64,000 nucleotides of DNA from assembly GCF_058153355.1 (NCBI RefSeq), contig NZ_CM177019.1. One strand, 5' to 3'. Under the pieces are notes generated by a model that saw only the letters and a list, made by a program, of their open reading frames with translations, had not been told where the DNA came from and made no database searches. Within the stretch, counting starts at the first letter, position 1, and every line of letters starts with the position of its first letter. A program made the translations under genes and the position numbers. Positions 6,027 through 20,819 of this stretch are shown piece by piece.

Positions 6027-6638
6027 CTACTTACGTTGATCATCTACCGTGACGCCTTGCGGCGGGGTGAAGGTAAATTTCGCTGCATCCACAGCCCCAT
6101 TTTGCTGGGATTTCAGCTGATAACTGCTGCGCTGATCGTCCTGCTCCACCGCGCTAAACTGATGGATTGTGCCATCACGCCCTACGTTAATGGTGAACTG
6201 CTTCAAATTGCCATTGCTGGCTTTCGGCGTCAGGACAAAGTCATCGCCATTCTGTTTGATATTGTACTGCTGCCAGTCGCTGGACTGGTTGCGGGCAATC
6301 AGCATAAACGGCGTATTACCGGTGGCATCTTTCAGCCAGGTTGCCGTAGCTTGCTCAACGAACGGGTTATAGAACCACAGTGTTTTACCGTCAGAAACCA
6401 GAATGCTTTCGTCAGGTTGAGTCATATGCCAGTTGAATAAGTTTGGACGTTTCACCCACAGATCGCCCTGACCTTCCTGCACCGCCGCGCCGCTACCGTC
6501 AGTCACTTTTTGTGTGAAGCTGGCGTGGAAGCTGCTGACTTTATCCAGGCGGCTTTTCAGATCGCTTGCGGCATCAGCCCAAACGCTGCTTGCTACTAAG
6601 CTTGAGAGTAATGCACAGGTGATGGCAATTTTTTTCAT
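6027..6638 (-). CDS. lolA: Outer-membrane lipoprotein carrier LolA
   Basis: ORF track starts at a tandem ATG (6641); I chose the second ATG (6638) for better SD spacing, giving 203 aa; signal peptide [21 protein letters not shown]. Confidence 0.93.
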
Positions 6639-6796
6639 CATTATTCCTCAAATTACGTCACTCCCGACCGGGAGCTCCCTCTACTCTCTATTCCAGGCTA
6701 ATAATCAGCTTGAGGAAAGAAGAAAATACTGAATTTTCAGTTACCAGATTGCCGGATGCGACGCTACCGCGCCTTATCCGGCATACGATGCATTAA

Positions 6797-9700
6797 TTAG
6801 TCAAACGGCGGTGGGGCCAGCACTTCACGATTACCGTTGTGCCCCTGTTCGCTGACAATCCCTTGCGCTTCCATCTGTTCGATAATACGCGCTGCACGGT
6901 TATAACCAATGCGGAACTGACGCTGTACGCCTGAAATTGACGCTTTGCGTTTTTCAATGACAAACTGCACCGCCTGATCGAACAACGGATCCAATTCTTC
7001 AGCGCCATCGAAACCACCCGCACCACCTTCGCTTTCGCTGTCGGAGGTGATGCCGTCAACATACTGTGGGCGACCACGCGCTTTCCAGTCCTGCACCACG
7101 GCATGAACTTCCTGATCGCGAACAAAAGCACCATGAACACGTACCGGCAACGTGGAGTTCGGCCCAGAGTAAAGCATATCCCCCATACCCAGCAGGGATT
7201 CCGCGCCAGCCTGATCAAGAATGGTACGTGAGTCAATCTTACTGGATACGGTAAAGGCGATACGGGTCGGAATATTCGCTTTAATCAGACCAGTAATAAC
7301 ATCAACCGATGGACGCTGAGTTGCCAGTACGAGGTGGATACCTGCAGCACGGGCTTTTTGCGCCAGACGTGCTATCAGCTCTTCCACTTTTTTACCTACC
7401 GTCATCATCAGGTCGGCAAATTCGTCCACCAACACCACAATGTACGGTTCTTTTTTCAGCACCGGATGCTGGGCATCCATACTGTCACCCGGCTTCCAGT
7501 ACGGGTCTGGAATCGGACGCATCATGCGATCGGCTTCAGCAATTTTTTCGTTATAACCCGCCAGATTACGCACACCCAGCGCAGACATCAGTTTGTAACG
7601 ACGCTCCATCTCGTTAACACACCAGCGCAGCGCGTTGGCGGCATCTTTCATATCGGTAACAACTTCCGTTAACAGGTGCGGAATGCCTTCATAAACCGAA
7701 AGCTCCAGCATTTTCGGGTCGATCATGATGAAACGCACATCTTCTGGCTGTGCTTTATAAAGCATGCTCAGGATCATCGCGTTCACACCGACAGATTTAC
7801 CGGAACCGGTAGTCCCCGCAACCAACAAGTGCGGCATCTTCGCCAGATCGGCAACCACCGGCTCACCGGCGATATCTTTACCCAGCACCACAGTTAATGG
7901 TGACGGATTATCGCGGAACTTCGCATTATCAAGCACTTCGCGCAGATAAACGGTTTGTCGTTTTTTATTCGGTAACTCCAGACCTACATAGGGTTTGCCA
8001 GGAATAACTTCAACGACACGCACCGCCACCGTCGAAAGTGAACGGGCAAGGTCACGTGACAAGTTAGAAATACGCGCCGCTTTTACGCCCGGTGCCAGGT
8101 TCAATTCAAAGCGAGTGATAACCGGCCCTGGAGAATAATTGACGACATCGGCTTTAATACGGAAATCAGCCAGACGCGCTTCCACCAGGCGCGCCATTTG
8201 TTCAAGCGCAAAGGTATCTACCGGCTCCACTTCGCTCGGCGGCGGCGTCAGCAAATCCAGAGAAGGCAGCGGCGTCGTCGGTTTATGCAACGGACGGCTG
8301 TCGCCATTGCGCATCAACAGCGGATGAAGCAGGGTATCCTGCGGCTGCGGCGCAACTGGCTGTTGCGGCTGCTGATATTGCTGCTGTGGTGCAACCGGCT
8401 GTTGTGGCTGCTGATACTGCGGCTGTGGTGCAACCGGCTGTTGCGGCTGCTGATATTGCGGCTGCTGTGCAACCGGTTGTTGCGGCTGCTGATATTGCTG
8501 CTGCGGCGCTACAGGTTGTTGTGGCTGCTGGTATTGCTGCTGCGGCGCTATCGGTTGTTGCGGCTGCTGTACAGGTTCAACAATTGGCGTAAACAGCGGT
8601 TCGTGTGGCCCATCATCCAGCAAAGCTTTCATTGGCGAAAATTCGAAATCATCCAGCGAGAACGGATTCGCCCCAGCCGGTTGTTCGCCCGAATAACGTT
8701 GCTGTTGAGTTTGAGCAAACTGACGAGCCAGTTCTGCCTCTGCTGCAGCATCTGTATCTTCTGCGTTGACTGGCACATCATGTTGATACTGTTCGCCATA
8801 GCGTTGCTGCTGCGTCTGGGCGAACTGACGCGCCAGTTCATCCTGCTGCATCGCATCGATTTCATCATCGTTATAATGATCGCCGGAATCGTACTGATTG
8901 CGCTGGGCTTCACGGGCTTTTTCTTCTGCCGCACGCTGTGAGGGCAGCTTAATACCGTAAGACGCCAGTTCACGACGAGTTGGCACGCGGATGCGTTTCG
9001 GTCGTGGCAACTGCGGGCCAATCCCCTCTTTGACCTGCGGACGCGGTCCACCGCTATTTGCCAGACTGAAAACTGGCGCGGCAACGGTTGCGGCAGCCCC
9101 CGTCGCCAGTGTCGCTTTTTTCACACCAGATGCCAGCGGAGAAACAGCGGCAGCGGCTTCTACTGGAGGTACTGCTGCAACAGAAGGTGCTTTCAGCGAA
9201 GATTTGATCGGTTCCGGTTCTTTAACCGGTTCAGGAATCGGTTGATACCAGGCCGCAAGTTGTTCACGTTCACGGGCACGCTTCTCTTCCACTTCTTCAA
9301 AATAGTAAAGCGGCGGACGCGCGGGTTTTGTCTCTTCTACAATGGGTTCAGGCTCCACAACAGGCTGCTGTTCAACGGGTTGCGGCTGTTGGTACAACGG
9401 CTCCTGAGCGGCTGGCTGCTGATAAGTTTGCTCCGTCTGGTATGTAGACTGTGGAGCAAAAGTGGATTGCTGCTCTTCGGCTTGCCAGGCGTTACCTGCC
9501 ACCGGTTGTTCTGGCGCAGGGGCGTAATACGGCTGTTGCGCAGGCTGTTGCGGCGCAGTTGCGTAATACGGTTGCTGAACAGGTTGTTCCGCCGCAGGAG
9601 CGTAGTAAGGTTGTTGCGCAGGTTGTTCAGCTGCAGGCGCATAATACGGCTGCTGTGGCTGTACAGGTTGTTGCAGCGGCTCATTATATTGCTCTGCAGG

Positions 9701-10864
9701 CTGCGCATATTGTGACTGCTGTGGGTAACCTTCCGGTGCAGGTGCAATAACCGGTTCTCCCGTTTGCGGCCCCGGTACAGGCTGCCAGGCTACTGTAGGT
9801 TGCGTAGGTGGAACATCAACAGAGGCAACTGGCGGCGTCTGAGTCACAGGTTCAACAGGTGCAGCCCAGCTTTGTGTCGCCGTGGTAGCAGCAGCTGCTA
9901 CAGCAACAGGTTCGGTAATTGGCGCACCGTTTAATAATGGATCGTATTCGTCATATTCTGGCTGCGTTGCACGATTGCCCGAAAAGAGGACGTCGTCAGG
10001 GTCGGCAGCCACACCGCGTGCAGTGTAGGTAATCTCTTCTTCATCATCCATCCGCTTACCGGAGAACAACGCAGCATCTGTTTGCCGCCCCATCGGATTA
10101 ATGAATTTTTCCGCCAGACGTTTACGACGTGCTAGCGCGCCGCGAAGAATACGGGCACGGCGCGATTCATGCTGTTTGCCGTGATTTTCATCTTCATACT
10201 CTTCGTCGTCTTCATATTCATCTTCATCGACCCAGGTATCATCGCGACGAGTACGATTACTGGCGAAGGTGAGAATGTTTAAAATCCAGCCGCCGAGTTT
10301 TTCAGCAATGGTCACCCATGACCAACCGGTAAACAGTGTCAGGCCCGCCGCCCAAACGCAGAGCAGCGCAATAGTTCCCCCGCTACTGTGTAGCAGTGGT
10401 TGTAGCGTAGTGCTTAGTAAGCTGCCAATGACGCCACCGGAGGCAAAATACCAGATATCGTCAGCGTTGATTGCCGCCAGACCACAGGAGGTAAGGATGA
10501 GCGCCAAAACGCCAATGATGCGTAGCGAAACGGCAAAATAATCAATGTATTCGTCGCTGGACTGATGACGCCAGGCAAACCAACAACCGCCGACAATAAT
10601 GACGGGAATGGTGTAAGCCATCACGCCAAAAATAAAGAACAGCGTATCTGCCAGCCACGCACCGGGCATCCCACCTAAATTATGGATAGGTTCATGCCAG
10701 GCCGTTTGCGACCAGCTGGGGTCCGAAGGGTTAAAGCTTAGTAAGGCAGCCATCAACCAGACGGCAAACAGGACAATAAGGATCAGCAACGCCTCCAGAA
10801 GGCGGCGGCCGCTACTTAACTTTGTCAATGTGACTTCTTTGTCTTCAGTGTATTCCTGGCTCAA
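6797..10864 (-). CDS. ftsK: DNA translocase FtsK
   Basis: 1355-aa ORF; N-terminal membrane domain, long Pro/Gln-rich linker, C-terminal motor with Walker A GTTGSGKS. Confidence 0.96.
8340..8580. repeat. In-frame tandem repeat (about 33-bp unit, about 7 copies) inside the ftsK linker
   Basis: Repeating units visible in the DNA; on the coding strand they give repeated [10 protein letters not shown](P/Q)QY peptide units. Confidence 0.8.
9512..9670. repeat. In-frame tandem repeat (about 39-bp unit, about 4 copies) inside the ftsK linker
   Basis: Repeated units encoding [13 protein letters not shown]-like peptides. Confidence 0.75.
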
Positions 10865-10998: not shown

Positions 10999-11493
10999 TT
11001 AGCGCGTCTTAATAACCAGACGATTACTCTGCTTGACTTCTTCCATAACAACGTATGTCCGCGTGTCATTGACGCCAGGCAAACGCAGCAGGGTTTCCCC
11101 AAGCAACTTACGATAAGCCGACATATCCGGCACGCGTGTTTTCAACAGGTAGTCGAAATCACCGGATACTAAATGACACTCCTGAATTTCTTCAAGTTTT
11201 TGTACAGCGGTATTGAATTGTTCAAACACATCCGGTGCGCCACGATTCAGAGTAATCTCAACGAATACCAGAAGTGATGCATCCAGATAATGGGGGTTCA
11301 GCAGCGCTGTATAGCCCTGAATAAACCCTTGTCTTTCCAGCCGACGCACACGCTCAAGGCACGGCGTTGGGGAAAGTCCCACACGTTTAGAAAGCTCGAC
11401 GTTAGAAATACGCCCATCCTTTTGCAACTCATTAAGAATGTTACGATCGATACGGTCGAGATCTTTGCCAGGGCGCTTCTTGCTATCTACCAT
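10999..11493 (-). CDS. lrp: Leucine-responsive regulatory protein
   Basis: Start moved to the internal ATG giving 164 aa beginning MVDSKKRPGKDLDRIDRNILNELQKDGRIS; AsnC-family HTH. Confidence 0.95.
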   Translation of the reverse strand: MVDSKKRPGKDLDRIDRNILNELQKDGRISNVELSKRVGLSPTPCLERVRRLERQGFIQGYTALLNPHYLDASLLVFVEITLNRGAPDVFEQFNTAVQKLEEIQECHLVSGDFDYLLKTRVPDMSAYRKLLGETLLRLPGVNDTRTYVVMEEVKQSNRLVIKTR

Positions 11494-11920
11494 TATTATT
11501 GTCTCTCTGTATTCCTTCCCTACTCCTGTCTGACCCTGAAACATCACTGTTCAGAGTCGCTACCCGTCACGATAGACCGAAATCATTAAGATTCACGGCG
11601 CGCAATGCCTGGTCTACGGTGAGAAGACCGTTGCCTGGTGGCAGCTATCGACATCACGAATGGCGTCTGTCCACGCCATACGTAGATTTCACTAGCACGG
11701 TAAACATGGTATTTACATGCATGGTTATGCGCATATAAGAATACTGTTTTTTTTCTTCCTCGAATGTTTTCGCAAAACACCAGGGGATTGTCAAAGCAAA
11801 ACATCGATTTTTAGTACAACATGCCAGATATTCATTAACAGGGGCGTTTATTCATCATTTAATCGGCTTATAACGCGGGAAATTTAAGTAGCAGAGGTGA
11901 TAATGCCGGAGGGAGTTTGA

Positions 11921-13003
<1,083 letters not shown>

Positions 13004-13125
13004 TTTTACAAATCAGTAACAAAAGTAAAGAAGGCGACACCATGCGACTATGGGTCGCCTTTATTTTTTCCCCGTTGTAACATTGCTCTGCAAATAATTC
13101 TGATAACTCACCTGCTAAGCGTGCA

Positions 13126-14892
13126 ATGAATAAATCCCGTCAAAAAGAGTTAACCCGCTGGTTAAAACAGCAAAGCGTCATCTCCCAACGTTGGCTGAAT
13201 ATTTCTCGTCTACTGGGCTTTGTGAGCGGCATATTGATCATTGCCCAGGCCTGGTTCATGGCGCGTATTCTGCAACATATGATTATGGAGAGTATTCCCC
13301 GTGAAGCCCTGCTGCTTCCCTTTACGTTACTGGTTCTGACCTTTGTACTGCGCGCATGGGTGGTCTGGTTACGCGAACGAGTGGGTTATCACGCCGGGCA
13401 GCATATCCGCTTTGCCATCCGCCGTCAGGTTCTCGACCGTCTGCAACAAGCAGGGCCAGCGTGGATTCAGGGTAAACCGGCGGGGAGCTGGGCGACGCTG
13501 GTACTCGAGCAAATTGACGATATGCATGATTACTATGCACGCTACCTGCCGCAAATGGCGCTGGCAGTGTCGGTGCCGTTGCTGATTGTGGTGGCTATCT
13601 TCCCCTCTAACTGGGCTGCGGCGCTCATTCTGCTGGGCACTGCTCCGTTAATTCCGTTATTTATGGCGCTGGTTGGAATGGGGGCTGCCGATGCTAACCG
13701 ACATAACTTTCTCGCTCTTGCTCGCTTAAGTGGGCATTTTCTTGATCGCCTGCGCGGCATGGAAACATTGCGTATTTTTGGTCGTGGCGAAGCTGAAATT
13801 GAAAGTATTCGTTCTGCTTCGGAAGATTTCCGCCAACGGACAATGGAAGTGTTACGGCTGGCGTTTTTATCCTCCGGCATTCTGGAATTCTTTACCTCGC
13901 TGTCGATTGCTCTGGTGGCGGTCTATTTTGGTTTTTCCTATCTCGGTGAGCTGAATTTTGGTCACTACGATACTGGCGTGACGCTAGCTGCGGGTTTTCT
14001 GGCCCTGATCCTTGCGCCGGAGTTTTTCCAGCCATTGCGCGATCTGGGTACGTTTTATCATGCTAAAGCCCAGGCTGTTGGCGCGGCGGACAGTCTGAAA
14101 ACGTTTATGGAAACCCCGCTCGCCCATCCGCAGCGCGGTGAGGCTGAATTAACGTCGACCGATCCGGTGACCATTGAGGCCGAGGATCTGTTTATCACGT
14201 CGACGGAAGGTAAAACGCTGGCAGGTCCGTTGAACTTTACTTTGCCAGCAGGCCAACGAGCGGTGTTGGTTGGTCGTAGCGGTTCAGGTAAAAGCTCACT
14301 ACTGAATGCGCTTTCCGGTTTTCTTTCATATCAGGGATCGCTACGAATCAACGGAATAGAATTACGTGATTTATCACCAGAATCATGGCGTAAGCATCTC
14401 TCCTGGGTTGGTCAAAATCCACAATTACCAGCAGCAACACTACGAGATAACGTACTGCTGGCACGACCTGATGCCAGCGAACAAGAGTTACAAACAGCAC
14501 TGGATAACGCGTGGGTCAGTGAGTTTCTACCGCTCCTGCCACAAGGAGTTGATACGCCTGTTGGCGACCAGGCTGCCCGCCTTTCCGTAGGCCAGGCACA
14601 ACGTGTGGCGGTGGCGCGTGCATTACTGAATCCCTGTTCGCTATTACTGTTGGATGAACCCGCAGCAAGCCTTGATGCTCACAGTGAACAGCGCGTAATG
14701 GAGGCGCTGAATGCCGCCTCTCTGCGCCAGACAACGTTAATGGTCACCCACCAGTTAGAAGATCTTGCTGACTGGGATGTCATTTGGGTAATGCAGGATG
14801 GTCAGATTATCGAGCAAGGACGTTACGCGGAATTAAGCGTGGCTAACGGTCCTTTTGCCACATTGCTGGCCCATCGTCAGGAGGAGATTTAA
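13126..14892 (+). CDS. cydD: Cysteine/glutathione ABC exporter subunit CydD
   Basis: 588-aa ORF with a transmembrane domain followed by an ABC ATPase (GRSGSGKSS, LSVGQAQR). Confidence 0.95.
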   Translation: MNKSRQKELTRWLKQQSVISQRWLNISRLLGFVSGILIIAQAWFMARILQHMIMESIPREALLLPFTLLVLTFVLRAWVVWLRERVGYHAGQHIRFAIRRQVLDRLQQAGPAWIQGKPAGSWATLVLEQIDDMHDYYARYLPQMALAVSVPLLIVVAIFPSNWAAALILLGTAPLIPLFMALVGMGAADANRHNFLALARLSGHFLDRLRGMETLRIFGRGEAEIESIRSASEDFRQRTMEVLRLAFLSSGILEFFTSLSIALVAVYFGFSYLGELNFGHYDTGVTLAAGFLALILAPEFFQPLRDLGTFYHAKAQAVGAADSLKTFMETPLAHPQRGEAELTSTDPVTIEAEDLFITSTEGKTLAGPLNFTLPAGQRAVLVGRSGSGKSSLLNALSGFLSYQGSLRINGIELRDLSPESWRKHLSWVGQNPQLPAATLRDNVLLARPDASEQELQTALDNAWVSEFLPLLPQGVDTPVGDQAARLSVGQAQRVAVARALLNPCSLLLLDEPAASLDAHSEQRVMEALNAASLRQTTLMVTHQLEDLADWDVIWVMQDGQIIEQGRYAELSVANGPFATLLAHRQEEI

Positions 14893-16614
14893 ATGCGCGC
14901 TTTGCTACCCTATCTGGCACTGTATAAACGTCATAAATGGATGTTAAGTCTTGGTATTGTGCTGGCAATTGTCACACTGCTCGCCAGTATCGGTCTGTTG
15001 ACACTTTCCGGCTGGTTCCTCTCGGCCTCAGCGGTAGCGGGGGTTGCCGGACTGTACAGCTTCAACTATATGCTACCCGCTGCAGGCGTGCGTGGCGCAG
15101 CAATCACCCGTACCGCCGGGCGTTATTTTGAACGTCTGGTGAGCCATGACGCGACTTTCCGCGTGTTGCAGCATCTGCGCATTTACACCTTCAGCAAATT
15201 GCTCCCCCTCTCCCCTGCCGGACTGGCGCGCTATCGTCAGGGCGAATTGCTCAACCGCGTCGTGGCGGATGTTGATACGCTCGATCATCTTTACCTGCGC
15301 GTTATCTCGCCGCTGGTGGGCGCTTTTGTGGTGATTATGGTGGTGACAATCGGGTTAAGTTTCCTTGATTTCACCCTCGCCTTTACGCTGGGCGGCATTA
15401 TGTTACTGACGCTTTTGCTGATGCCACCGCTGTTTTATCGTGCGGGAAAAAGCACCGGGCAAAATCTGACTCATCTTCGCGGGCAGTATCGCCAACAACT
15501 GACAGCCTGGCTGCAAGGGCAAGCTGAGCTGACCATTTTTGGTGCCAGCGATCGTTATCGCACGCAATTAGAGAATACTGAAATTCAGTGGCTGGAAGCG
15601 CAACGCCGTCAATCTGAACTGACAGCTTTGTCGCAAGCAATAATGCTGTTAATTGGCGCGTTAGCGGTGATCCTGATGCTGTGGATGGCGTCTGGCGGCG
15701 TTGGTGGCAATACTCAACCAGGCGCGTTAATTGCCCTGTTTGTCTTCTGTGCGTTAGCCGCGTTTGAAGCACTGGCACCAGTAACGGGTGCATTTCAGCA
15801 TCTGGGGCAAGTCATTGCCTCTGCCGTACGGATCACCGATTTAACGGATCAAAAACCTGAAGTCACCTTCCCTGATACCCAAACCCGTGTTGCCGATTGC
15901 GTTTCGCTGACGTTACGGGATGTTCAGTTCACTTATCCGGAGCAGTCCCAACAGGCACTTAAAGGGATTTCTCTTCAGGTAAACGCCGGAGAACATATGG
16001 CGATTCTCGGGCGAACCGGATGCGGTAAATCAACATTGTTACAACTGCTGACCCGCGCATGGGACCCGCAACAGGGCGAGATTTTAATTAACGATAGCCC
16101 CATAGCCAGCCTGAACGAAGCAACTCTACGACAGACCATCAGCGTTGTGCCACAGCGAGTGCATCTGTTTAGCGCCACACTGCGTGATAATCTGTTACTC
16201 GCCTCCCCTGGCAGTAGTGATGAAGTTTTGGCGGAGATCTTGCGTCGAGTTGGTCTGGAGAAGCTGCTCGAGGATGCAGGTCTCAACAGTTGGTTAGGTG
16301 AAGGCGGACGCCAGCTCTCCGGTGGTGAACTGCGCCGTCTGGCTATCGCCCGTGCGCTGTTACATGATGCGCCACTGGTATTGCTGGATGAACCTACCGA
16401 AGGCTTAGATGCCACAACTGAAAGTCAGATCCTTGAATTACTTGCAGAAATGATGCGTGAGAAAACGGTGTTAATGGTCACCCATCGACTTCGCGGGCTC
16501 TCTCGTTTCCAGCAAATAATAGTGATGGACAACGGGCAAATTATTGAGCAAGGTACTCACGCAGAACTGCTTGCCCGACAGGGGCGTTATTACCAGTTTA
16601 AGCAGGGTTTGTAA
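14893..16614 (+). CDS. cydC: Cysteine/glutathione ABC exporter subunit CydC
   Basis: 573-aa ORF; start overlaps the cydD stop (TAAATG); ABC motifs GRTGCGKST, LSGGELRR. Confidence 0.95.
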   Translation: MRALLPYLALYKRHKWMLSLGIVLAIVTLLASIGLLTLSGWFLSASAVAGVAGLYSFNYMLPAAGVRGAAITRTAGRYFERLVSHDATFRVLQHLRIYTFSKLLPLSPAGLARYRQGELLNRVVADVDTLDHLYLRVISPLVGAFVVIMVVTIGLSFLDFTLAFTLGGIMLLTLLLMPPLFYRAGKSTGQNLTHLRGQYRQQLTAWLQGQAELTIFGASDRYRTQLENTEIQWLEAQRRQSELTALSQAIMLLIGALAVILMLWMASGGVGGNTQPGALIALFVFCALAAFEALAPVTGAFQHLGQVIASAVRITDLTDQKPEVTFPDTQTRVADCVSLTLRDVQFTYPEQSQQALKGISLQVNAGEHMAILGRTGCGKSTLLQLLTRAWDPQQGEILINDSPIASLNEATLRQTISVVPQRVHLFSATLRDNLLLASPGSSDEVLAEILRRVGLEKLLEDAGLNSWLGEGGRQLSGGELRRLAIARALLHDAPLVLLDEPTEGLDATTESQILELLAEMMREKTVLMVTHRLRGLSRFQQIIVMDNGQIIEQGTHAELLARQGRYYQFKQGL

Positions 16615-16655
16615 GCTATTATTGAACGATCCGACTTGCGTGGAGTTTTGCGGTC

Positions 16656-17360
16656 ATGCGCCTGGTTCAGCTTTCTCGCCATTCAATAGCCTTCCCTTCC
16701 CCGGAAGGCGCATTACGTGAGCCTAACGGCCTGCTGGCACTGGGGGGCGATCTTAGCCCTGCGCGCCTGTTAATGGCTTATCAGCGTGGTATTTTTCCGT
16801 GGTTTTCTCCAGGCGACCCCATCCTCTGGTGGTCGCCCGATCCTCGCGCGGTACTATGGCCTGAATCATTGCATATCAGCCGTAGTATGAAACGATTTCA
16901 TAAACGCTCGCCCTATCGTGTCACGATGAATTACGCCTTTGGTCAGGTCATTGAAGGCTGTGCCAGCGATCGCGAAGAAGGAACCTGGATCACGCGTGGC
17001 GTGGTCGAAGCCTACCATCGCCTTCACGAACTCGGTCATGCCCACTCCATCGAAGTCTGGTGTGAAGATGAGCTTGTTGGCGGTATGTACGGCGTGGCCC
17101 AGGGAACGCTATTTTGTGGCGAGTCCATGTTCAGCCGGATGGAAAATGCGTCTAAAACGGCGCTTCTGGTATTCTGTGAGGAATTTATTGGTCATGGCGG
17201 TAAACTTATCGACTGCCAGGTACTTAACGATCACACAGCGTCGCTTGGTGCCTGCGAAATTCCCCGCCGGGATTATCTGAATTATCTCAACCAAATGCGC
17301 CTCGGACGATTGCCGAATAATTTCTGGGTACCACGATGCTTGTTTTCACCACAAGAATGA
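16656..17360 (+). CDS. aat: Leucyl/phenylalanyl-tRNA-protein transferase
   Basis: 234-aa ORF in the conserved cydC-aat-infA arrangement. Confidence 0.93.
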
Positions 17361-17641
17361 ATGTTTTCGGCACATTTCTCCCCAGAGTGTTATAATTGCG
17401 GTCGCAGAGTTGGTTACGCTCATTACCCCGCTGCCGATAAGGAATTTTTCGCGTCAGGTAACGCCCATCGTTTATCTCACCGCTCCCTTATACGTTGCGC
17501 TTTTGGTGCGGCTTAGCCGTGTGTTTTCGGAGTAATGTGCCGAACCTGTTTGTTGCGATTTAGCGCGCAAATCTTTACTTATTTACAGAACTTCGGCATT
17601 ATCTTGCCGGTTCAAATTACGGTAGTGATACCCCAGAGGAT

Positions 17642-17863
<222 letters not shown>

Positions 17864-17904
17864 TTGTTTTACCGCCTGATGGGCGAAGAGAAAGAACGAG
17901 TAAA

Positions 17905-17932
17905 AGGTCGGTTTAACCGGCCTTTTTATTTT
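17905..17932 (+). terminator. Rho-independent terminator after infA
   Basis: Hairpin AGGTCGG-TTTAA-CCGGCCT followed by a T-run. Confidence 0.5.
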
Positions 17933-18110
17933 GTACGAAGAACGCTGGAAGTATAAGTACATAACTTGTCTCGATGTAGATATACTGCACAACTTGTTTA
18001 CAGTATGAGCAAACGAGAATTGTCAGTAAAATTCTTCTTGACCGTTTTACTCCAACTCCCTATAGTAGCGCCCCGTTGCCCCCCCATGAGGTCAGGCAGC
18101 AAAACAATTT

Positions 18111-18198
18111 GGTGAGGTGTCCGAGTGGCTGAAGGAGCACGCCTGGAAAGTGTGTATACGGCAACGTATCGGGGGTTCGAATCCCCCCCTCACCGCCA
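18111..18198 (+). tRNA. serW: tRNA-Ser (anticodon GGA)
   Basis: 88-nt sequence GGTGAGGTGTCCGAGTGGCTGAAGG...GGGGGTTCGAATCCCCCCCTCACCGCCA; long variable arm, anticodon loop CUGGAAA, encoded CCA. Confidence 0.96.
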
Positions 18199-18212
18199 TA
18201 TTTGAAGAAGAG

Positions 18213-18239
18213 CTCGTACGAAAGTACGGGCTTTTTTTT
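18213..18239 (+). terminator. Rho-independent terminator after serW
   Basis: Stem CTCGTAC/GTACGGG with GAAA tetraloop, then T8. Confidence 0.6.
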
Positions 18240-18249
18240 CGCATTTTAT

Positions 18250-18324
18250 CTGCCTGTACGGCAGTAAACCGAATGGCTTTTAATTCCTCGCTAAAGCGCA
18301 CTTTCTAAGCTGCCTGTACGGCAG
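18250..18324. repeat. Two copies of a 15-bp near-palindrome CTGCCTGTACGGCAG, 60 bp apart, in the serW-clpA intergenic region
   Basis: Exact duplicate at 18250-18264 and 18310-18324. Confidence 0.6.
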
Positions 18325-18542
18325 TGAACTCAAATACTACACGTTTAGCCCGTTGTTAATAAAGCAAAACCATCTCATTCTCCTGCTGCCCCCCTTTTTT
18401 ATCCTTACCTTCCAGCAGCACTAATTATCAACAACTTACCATCATCATCAAAAAAAGGGTCTGGACCTCCTCCACCCCATAAATAAAAAGTCCGTAACCC
18501 CTGACGAGATTACGGACTTCACAAACCTACCTAACAATCAGA

Positions 18543-20819
18543 TTAATGCGCTGCTTCCGCCTTGTGCTTTTGTGCACTCTGGAATCCGTAAGTCAGCTCA
18601 TTTTTCTCTTTATCCAGCGCGACGGTGACCTGACCGCCGTCCACTAGCGAACCAAACAGCAATTCGTTAGCGAGTGGTTTTTTCAGGTTGTCCTGGATGA
18701 CTCGTGCCATCGGACGTGCGCCCATCGCCCGGTCGTAACCTTTCTCGGCCAGCCAGTTACGCGCTTCCTGGCTCACTTCCAGAGAAACACCTTTCTGATC
18801 CAACTGAACCTGCAACTCGACGATGAATTTATCCACTACCTGATGGATCACGTCGGTGGAGAGATGATCGAACCAGATAATGTTGTCGAGACGGTTACGG
18901 AATTCCGGTGTAAAGATCTTCTTGATCTCTTCCATCGCATCGGTGCTGTTATCCTGGTGGATAAGACCAATGGATTTACGCTCAGTTTCCCGTACCCCGG
19001 CATTAGTGGTCATCACCAGCACCACGTTACGGAAGTCCGCTTTGCGTCCGTTGTTATCGGTCAGCGTACCGTTGTCCATCACCTGCAACAGAATATTGAA
19101 CACGTCCGGGTGCGCTTTCTCGATTTCGTCCAGCAGCAGCACCGCATGAGGATGCTTGATGACCGCATCAGTCAGCAAACCGCCCTGATCAAAACCAACG
19201 TATCCCGGAGGCGCACCAATCAGACGGCTGACGGTATGGCGTTCCATATACTCGGACATATCAAAGCGCAGAAGCTCAATGCCCAAAGCTTTCGAAAGCT
19301 GTACCGTCACCTCTGTTTTCCCGACCCCGGTAGGGCCGGCAAACAGGAACGAACCGACTGGTTTATGTTCGTGACCTAAACCTGCACGCGCCATCTTAAT
19401 GGCTTCAGTCAGCGCCTCAATGGCTTTATCCTGACCGAAGACCAGCATTTTCAGGCGATCGCTGAGGTTTTTCAAGGTATCGCGGTCACTCTGAGAAACA
19501 CTCTTCTCTGGAATGCGCGCAATACGGGCCACCACGGACTCAATATCCGCCACATTAACGGTTTTCTTGCGTTTGCTTACCGGCATCAGGCGTGCGCGAG
19601 CGCCCGCTTCGTCGATAACGTCAATGGCTTTATCCGGCAGATGACGATCGTTAATGTATTTCACCGCCAGCTCTACCGCTGCACGCACCGCTTTTGCGGT
19701 ATAACGCACGTCATGGTGCGCTTCGTACTTCGGTTTCAGGCCGTTGATGATCTGTACGGTTTCTTCGATCGACGGTTCAGTAATATCAATTTTCTGGAAG
19801 CGACGCGCCAGAGCACGGTCTTTCTCGAAAATGTTGCTGAACTCCTGATAGGTTGTCGAACCAATTACGCGAATTTTACCGCTTGAGAGCAACGGTTTGA
19901 TCAGGTTAGCCGCATCAACCTGACCACCAGAGGCTGCACCCGCACCGATAATGGTGTGGATCTCATCAATAAACAGGATGCTGTTAGTGTCCTGCTCCAG
20001 CTGCTTGAGCAACGCTTTAAAACGTTTTTCAAAGTCGCCGCGATATTTTGTGCCCGCTAACAGAGAACCGATATCGAGAGAGTAAATCGTACAGTCAGCC
20101 ATCACTTCCGGCACATCGCCCTGAACAATTCGCCATGCAAGACCTTCCGCAATCGCGGTTTTACCGACACCAGACTCCCCCACCAGCAGCGGGTTGTTTT
20201 TACGGCGACGGCAGAGAACCTGAATAGCACGCTCCAGCTCCTTCTCACGACCAATCAGTGGGTCGATTCCGCCCACACGCGCAAGCTGATTCAGGTTCGT
20301 CGTGAAATTCTCCATACGTTCCTCCCCACCAGCTTGTTCTTCGCTGTTTGGCTGGCTGCCAGGATCAGAAGACTGTGTCGGCTCGTCTTTACGCGTGCCA
20401 TGAGAGATAAAGTTCACCACATCGAGACGGCTGACTTCATGTTTGCGCAACAAATATGCCGCCTGCGACTCCTGTTCGCTAAAGATAGCGACCAGAACGT
20501 TTGCACCGGTAACCTCATTGCGACCGGAGGACTGGACATGGAAGACCGCACGTTGCAGTACACGCTGAAAACTCAGCGTTGGCTGTGTGTCGCGCTCCTC
20601 TTCACTGGCAGGCAGAACGGGTGTGGTTTGTTCAATAAAGGCTTCCAGTTCCTGACGGAGCGCAACCAAATCCACAGAACACGCTTCCAGCGCCTCCCGG
20701 GCAGATGGGTTACTGAGCAGCGCCAGTAACAAGTGCTCGACGGTCATAAACTCATGACGGTGCTCGCGCGCTCTGGCGAAAGCCATATTTAAACTGAGTT
20801 CCAGTTCTTGATTGAGCAT
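18543..20819 (-). CDS. clpA: ATP-dependent Clp protease ATP-binding subunit ClpA
   Basis: Start moved to [19 protein letters not shown] (758 aa); two AAA+ modules ([16 protein letters not shown]). Confidence 0.95.

Follow-up and report, generated by a model that had tools for sequence, protein, structure and literature searches.

The ftsK gene in the 64,000-nucleotide stretch of Escherichia coli DNA analyzed here (contig NZ_CM177019.1; the window) raises the question of why its product is longer than that of K-12 and which of the two lengths represents the change. The open reading frame (ORF) list places ftsK at positions 6797 to 10864 on the minus strand, with a TTG start and a product of 1355 amino acids (aa), and K-12 ftsK (b0890, NP_415410.1) is 3990 bp in length and encodes 1329 aa; both protein lengths agree with a preliminary description of the window. 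Translated ORFs indicated that ftsK is flanked by lolA (6027 to 6641, minus strand) and lrp (10999 to 11547, minus strand), and the order lrp-ftsK-lolA is common to the window, K-12, and a further 10 genomes of E. coli. A Pfam search identified FtsK_4TM (PF13491) at aa 20 to 191 (E = 5e-42), corresponding to the N-terminal membrane domain with four transmembrane segments, and FtsK_gamma (PF09397) at aa 1290 to 1350 (E = 9e-29), corresponding to the C-terminal winged-helix domain that interacts with KOPS and XerD. Between them were FtsK_alpha (PF17854) at aa 866 to 966 and FtsK_SpoIIIE (PF01580) at aa 974 to 1187 (E = 9e-88), which, together with the Walker A motif GTTGSGKS seen in the translation, represent the alpha and beta motor and its P-loop ATPase. 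The protein shares its TTG start and an MSQEY N-terminus with K-12 FtsK, and an identical 1355-aa protein is recorded at NCBI as E. coli FtsK (EGO8352442.1 and HFG3508530.1). We conclude that the ORF encodes FtsK proper, an FtsK/SpoIIIE DNA translocase with the full domain set, and its 99% identity to K-12 FtsK suggests that it would translocate DNA and activate XerCD-dif recombination.

The membrane domain and the motor are separated by a Pro/Gln-rich linker (8270 to 10291, minus strand; aa 192 to 865) in which no Pfam domain was found. The linker of E. coli FtsK is unstructured, rich in Pro and Gln, approximately 650 aa long, variable across species, and required for normal FtsK activity (PMC5357621, PMC3870252). 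According to one report, parts of the linker contact FtsZ, FtsQ, FtsL, and FtsI, and normal division and dimer resolution depend on them (PMC5357621).

TRF analysis detected two tandem arrays within the linker, both of which are in frame and code for Pro/Gln-rich peptides, as had been described earlier. Array A (9500 to 9655, minus strand; aa 404 to 455) consists of four 39-bp units, each encoding 13 aa and here called A1 to A4. TRF reported it at 9504 to 9652 with a period of 39, 3.8 copies, and 75% matches, and a period of 78 was also possible. Array B (8339 to 8569, minus strand; aa 766 to 842) consists of 5.9 copies of a 39-bp unit that also encodes 13 aa, and TRF reported it at 8340 to 8569 with a period of 39, 5.9 copies, 88% matches, and a score of 313. 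Autocorrelation at period 39 was 0.75 in array A compared to 0.37 in codon shuffles (z = 8.3) and 0.88 in array B compared to 0.50 in codon shuffles (z = 11.8). The preliminary description had given the units as 33 and 39 bp, of which the 39-bp figure applies to both arrays and the 33-bp figure to neither: TRF reported no period of 33, and autocorrelation at that period was at background in array A (0.24) and in array B (0.42). A conserved 33-nt core that recurs at 39-nt spacing (family D3) may lie behind the 33-bp figure.

The units within each array are related but distinct. Some of the repeats had been called perfect, and yet a search for identical DNA units in arrays A and B found none. 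Unit-to-unit DNA identity was 74 to 79% in array A and 79 to 92% in array B, the longest exact repeats were 11 nt and 26 nt, respectively, and some array B units were identical as peptides only. Differences between units were mostly synonymous in both arrays, such that A1 and A2 differ at 10 nt but at only 1 aa, another array A pair differs at 8 nt and 1 aa, and one pair of array B units differs at 5 nt and 0 aa. A separate 14-aa peptide occurs twice between the arrays (8693 to 8839, minus strand; aa 676 to 689 and aa 711 to 724, 35 aa apart), and of 80 loci from Enterobacteriaceae species, 77 contained two copies. We conclude that the 14-aa pair is a conserved duplicated linker motif that lies outside the variable arrays.

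Protein alignment to K-12 FtsK assigned all 26 aa of the difference to two extra units in array A. K-12 array A corresponds to the first and last units of the window array, A1 and A4, with A2 and A3 missing, and array B spans 77 aa in each of the two proteins. The alignment revealed neither an equal repeat count nor a different start, and the proposal that FtsK length differs by linker repeat copy number was therefore sustained. The further proposal that the difference sits in both arrays was correct for array A and incorrect for array B, which is the same length in K-12.

Tandem repeats are a classic cause of short-read misassembly, and thus the copy numbers could be an artefact of repeats that were collapsed or expanded during assembly. 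At 156 and 231 bp, however, the arrays are short and their units are individually distinct, such that assembly should be unambiguous. Moreover, the same unit order was observed in complete genomes, for example that of OkiPb01691 for array A and that of EC42405 for array B, and the exact 1355-aa protein was deposited under two separate NCBI accessions from two contigs. An assembly artefact is extremely improbable, and we take the copy numbers in the window as genuine.

Array sizes were determined in approximately 60 genomes (59 counted) chosen at regular intervals along the ranked hits from 5426 complete genomes of E. coli, a collection that is biased towards clinical isolates. Array A contained 2 units in 19 of the 59 genomes, 3 units in 20, and 4 units in another 20. 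In addition, 1791 of the 5426 records fell within a band of 95 to 99% identity that, in the sampled rows, represented the 4-unit form of array A. Array B was sized with a query made of its flanks only, as alignments to a query that spanned the array were interrupted within the repeats in over half of the genomes. The most frequent span was 640 bp (28 genomes), followed by the 601-bp span found in the window and K-12 (19 genomes, 32%), 679 bp (6 genomes), 718 bp (2 genomes), a variant with an additional 15 bp at 616 bp (2 genomes), 562 bp (1 genome), and 484 bp (1 genome). Both alleles carried by the window, the 4-unit array A and the 6-unit array B, are common.

The range of copy number was wider in individual genes and proteins. 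Eleven fetched E. coli ftsK genes contained 2 to 4 units in array A and 3 to 9 units in array B, the two arrays varied independently of one another, and the encoded proteins were 1316 to 1381 aa in length. The 120 best matches in a protein database search were all length variants of E. coli or Shigella FtsK and were therefore useless for polarity. Among those 120, array B reached 12 units and FtsK reached 1433 aa, and array A never exceeded 4 units in what is a biased set. Within sampled lineages, alleles were uniform: 2 array A units were present in all sampled rows of O157:H7, with an array B span of 640 bp, and in all sampled K-12 derivatives, with an array B span of 601 bp, and both sampled rows of O145:H28 had a 679-bp array B span. 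We conclude that array A varies from 2 to 4 units and array B from 3 to 12 units across E. coli lineages.

One way in which the window protein could have become longer than that of K-12 is by a recent, strain-specific slippage expansion in a hypermutable repeat, which would leave an unusually long linker and possibly heterogeneity within the culture. Consistent with expansion, the window protein exceeds K-12 FtsK by 26 aa, the excess is two repeat units, and repeat copy number does differ among strains. A2 and A3 differ from their neighbors at 8 to 10 of 39 nt, however, and thus are not fresh copies, and when 11 other strains were compared, A2 was identical at 39 of 39 nt in 7 of them. Moreover, 4-unit array A occurs in roughly 33% of genomes, 1355 aa falls below the midpoint of the 1316- to 1433-aa range seen for E. 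coli FtsK, alleles did not vary within the sampled lineages, and exact repeats in array A extend to no more than 11 nt. Recent strain-specific expansion is already largely refuted, and we consider it very unlikely. Read-level heterogeneity in copy number is likewise unlikely. Two parts of the preliminary description are affected: the length it regarded as strain specific is built from a 4-unit array A found in about a third of complete genomes and a common array B allele (allele 5 of the typing scheme considered below), and its slippage hotspot is only weakly apt as a term for arrays with diverged units and alleles that are uniform within sampled lineages.

The direction of change was considered by comparing individual array A units, which could be recognized one by one across strains and thus represent positional orthologues. 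Like K-12, O157 carries an array A made of A1 and A4. Three different 3-unit alleles contained in-register hybrids of adjacent units, and the units joined were A3 and A4 in MB49, DETEC-E1005, and Nissle, A1 and A2 in JSWP006, and A2 and A3 in EC42405. Comparison of these hybrids indicates that several independent single-unit deletions may have occurred from a 4-unit array.

Outgroups were taken from a scan with one genome per species. Array A contained 4 units in E. albertii, 5 units in E. whittamii, 4 units in another divergent Escherichia, and 2 units in two others. The same scan found no array A in Salmonella, Citrobacter, or Enterobacter, and the array found at this position in Klebsiella pneumoniae is unrelated, its unit being approximately 24 aa long. 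Array A is specific to the genus Escherichia. The array B unit was common to Escherichia, Salmonella, and Citrobacter and degenerate in Klebsiella and Enterobacter, and in E. albertii poly-Ala stood in place of part of array B. Because A2 and A3 are diverged, A2 is orthologous across strains, hybrid units are present, and Escherichia outgroups carry longer arrays, K-12 probably has a contracted array A and the window the full 4-unit array, a polarity that is drawn from unit and outgroup comparisons rather than from a rooted phylogeny. The two Escherichia outgroup genomes that also have 2 units point the other way. The term "expanded," under which the repeats had been described, probably reverses the direction of change, given the divergence of the units, the hybrid units, and the outgroups.

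The overall explanation is highly probable: the ftsK linker, a disordered region, contains two old and diverged 39-bp minisatellites that vary by lineage, the alleles in the window are common ones, and the difference from K-12 most likely reflects a deletion in K-12. Copy number would change by rare in-register unequal recombination or by replication slippage between adjacent units. The hybrid junctions of the 3-unit alleles show such events. Each event would add or remove whole 13-aa modules, such that the reading frame would be kept, and K-12 would have lost A2 and A3, most likely by deletion. The rate of unit gain and loss is presumably low, as argued by the shortness of the exact repeats (11 nt in array A and 26 nt in array B) and the stability of alleles within lineages. 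Based on the literature on the linker, the arrays would alter, in steps of 13 aa, the length of a flexible tether that connects the septal membrane anchor to the hexameric motor. Natural variation by a few units is probably nearly neutral in a linker of approximately 670 aa.

The predominance of synonymous differences between units suggests that the peptide motif may be under selection and, if so, that copy number might matter. The repeats could be functional, multivalent short linear motifs that bind a partner in the divisome or envelope or determine how far the motor can reach, with copy number being selected rather than neutral. One motif can be written QQPYYAPxxEQP, and the second motif is a 13-aa peptide. 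In support of functional modules, the unit pairs above differ far more in nucleotides than in residues (10 nt and 1 aa, 8 nt and 1 aa, and 5 nt and 0 aa), the array B unit has been kept across Escherichia, Salmonella, and Citrobacter, the three array A alleles are at roughly equal frequency, and parts of the linker reportedly contact FtsZ, FtsQ, FtsL, and FtsI (PMC5357621). Copy number nonetheless ranges widely in healthy lineages (3 to 12 for array B and 2 to 4 for array A), poly-Ala replaces part of array B in E. albertii, and in Klebsiella and Enterobacter the place of array A is taken by sequence that is unrelated or degenerate. Moreover, when an 84-bp repeat indel in the ftsK linker was swapped between strains of Salmonella Enteritidis, egg-white survival was unchanged, such that no phenotype resulted in that one assay (PMC6137255). 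Finally, concerted evolution and constraints on codons or composition can mimic purifying selection on short units. Functional modules are unlikely, and slightly more doubtful is the specific form in which the 13-aa units are more than spacer, being multivalent motifs selected as peptides as their DNA drifts, in which their number tunes the coupling of septum closure to chromosome clearing, and in which balancing or lineage-specific selection instead of neutral drift accounts for the roughly equal array A allele frequencies.

A 247-aa, Leu/Arg-rich ORF on the plus strand (8198 to 8941) lies antisense to ftsK codons 642 to 889. Each codon of the ORF is the exact reverse complement of an ftsK codon, and the antisense stop-free run covers sense codons 643 to 935. 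In this alignment, antisense stops arise only from the sense codons TTA, CTA, and TCA, of which there are 25 among the 1355 codons of ftsK and which are scarce in a Pro/Gln/Ala-rich stretch. The richness in Leu and Arg is the mirror image of CAG, CAA, and CCG codons. A real overlapping gene would be consistent with an ORF that is long and open and with the comparable open run found in most strains. A mere shadow of ftsK, however, is what the codon-aligned mirroring suggests, and the length of the open run shifts with repeat number, being truncated to 207 codons in EC42405. Moreover, the ORF had no match in Pfam and no annotation in the RefSeq records of the E. coli genomes compared. The chance that it represents a gene is negligible. 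We conclude that the 247-aa ORF is an artefact, in agreement with how it was first interpreted.

Array B coincides with a known typing marker. CVN001 is locus 1 of a generic E. coli multilocus variable-number tandem-repeat (MLVA) scheme in which the allele is calculated as (PS − 250)/39 (PMC8143711), which the same paper credits to Lindstedt et al. 2007, and the locus is labeled "CNV001 (ftsK)" elsewhere (PMC11773471). The forward primer, AACCGGCTGGGGCGAATCC (PMC8143711, Table 1), had 0 mismatches to positions 8664 to 8682 on the minus strand, and the reverse primer had 1 mismatch to positions 8238 to 8257 on the plus strand. Each primer had a single site in the window, where chance alone would give 0. 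The in silico amplicon is 445 bp, and (445 − 250)/39 gives allele 5, as in K-12. Alleles 2, 4, 5, 6, 7, and 8 and the variant with an additional 15 bp were found in silico among the 59 sampled genomes and the 11 fetched genes. A Swedish survey reported CVN001 allele 4 at 1%, allele 5 at 40%, allele 6 at 40%, allele 7 at 13%, and allele 8 at 5% (PMC5217547), and array B allele frequencies in our genome sample were close to those of the survey. We conclude from the primers, the 39-bp unit, the location within ftsK, and the polymorphism that array B is CVN001 and that allele 5, carried by the window, is one of the two commonest.

Differences in FtsK length among E. coli strains thus reflect 13-aa modules in two independent arrays rather than start codon errors or truncations. 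Equal length does not indicate equal alleles, as FtsK is 1329 aa in both K-12 and DETEC-E1005 but is built with 2 array A and 6 array B units in the former and with 3 array A and 5 array B units in the latter. In silico typing of array B as CVN001 is possible, and array A provides an additional three-state marker within E. coli that is apparently unnamed, as our literature search found no paper naming it as a VNTR. If copy number were shown to affect division or dimer resolution, the alleles present in nature would form a series ready for use in experiments. Nothing in the analysis suggests a strong effect of copy number, and the variation matters little beyond annotation hygiene.

The arrays resemble the repeats of phase-variable contingency loci in that they are tandem repeats in a coding region with a copy number that varies among strains. 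Contingency repeats consist of identical short units whose gain or loss shifts the reading frame or the promoter spacing, whereas the ftsK units are 39 bp in length and 74 to 92% identical, changes in their number never shift the frame because 39 is a multiple of 3, and there is no on/off switching. Nor was there variation within lineages in the small sample of O157:H7, K-12-derived, and O145:H28 genomes. K-12 FtsK itself is alike in its TTG start, four Pfam domains, lrp-ftsK-lolA context, and array B copy number. K-12 FtsK differs in having 2 array A units rather than 4, which amounts to 26 aa, and by scattered substitutions, several of which are inside the arrays. With respect to CVN001, the MLVA count of 5 is one below the peptide unit number (5.9 units in array B) because of the offset convention, and nothing else material differs. 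Finally, Salmonella STTR7/SENTR2 is also a 39-bp VNTR in ftsK (PMC2430564), with the same type of 13-aa unit as array B, the same location immediately before the alpha domain of FtsK, and copy number indels between Salmonella isolates (PMC6137255); it differs in having 9.3 copies in S. Enteritidis and in belonging to a genus that has no array A. We conclude that length polymorphism in the ftsK linker is real, ordinary, and already known and that one of its two arrays is a standard typing marker.

Sequence comparison was performed for the window against 5,426 complete E. coli genomes, and the closest match to the 8 kb at positions 11000 to 19000 was 98.4 to 98.7% identical, while the closest match to the whole ftsK gene was 98.0% identical. 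The flanks of array B, the 39-bp repeat array at positions 8339 to 8569 in the ftsK linker, were 99.4% identical to those of strain N96, from a Tibetan pig, and at most 96.9% identical to those of the other sampled genomes. Moreover, the exact FtsK protein of the window was on record from two contigs only. We conclude, on the strength of these sequence matches, that the E. coli lineage of the window is an uncommon one. Separately, the search of the complete E. coli genomes also placed a few ftsK-sequence matches on plasmid-labelled records (8 to 28 places), and one of the 5,426 genomes was without any ftsK match.

Array B, the published MLVA typing locus CVN001, contained an additional partial unit of 15 bp (5 aa) in E. 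coli Nissle 1917 and in 2 of the 59 sampled genomes. The partial unit results in a noninteger CVN001 size, such that an amplicon of 460 bp corresponds to 5.4 repeats. Between arrays A and B, the linker contained two copies of a 14-aa peptide spaced 35 aa apart, one at FtsK residues 676 to 689 (positions 8798 to 8839, minus strand) and the other at residues 711 to 724 (positions 8693 to 8734, minus strand). A LARQFAQ-like motif was likewise present in two copies at 77 of the 80 loci from Enterobacteriaceae species, and the duplicated peptide looks like a conserved duplicated element of the linker.

TRF also indicated a run of period 6, TTCATC repeated seven times, at positions 10187 to 10228, which in minus-strand ftsK codes for a 14-aa acidic stretch (residues ~213 to 226) shortly after the membrane domain. 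Additional ORFs of 99 to 157 aa overlapped the linker on both strands. One, at 9242 to 9715 on the plus strand, was, like the 247-aa ORF, codon-aligned antisense over ftsK, here over array A, and the ORF list gave three others, at 9451 to 9750 (plus strand), 9337 to 9747 (minus strand), and 8629 to 9084 (minus strand). We regard all of these ORFs as artefacts that stem from the composition of a coding sequence rich in Pro and Gln.

Repeats were also present at equivalent linker positions in relatives. Klebsiella pneumoniae ATCC 13883 carried an unrelated tandem array at the position of array A, with a unit of ~24 aa (PAPQAYQPEPAPYQQPVYDPRAGQ), and Escherichia albertii NBRC 107761 carried a run of 11 alanines in place of part of array B. 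Repeats seem to arise again and again at the same positions of the FtsK linker.
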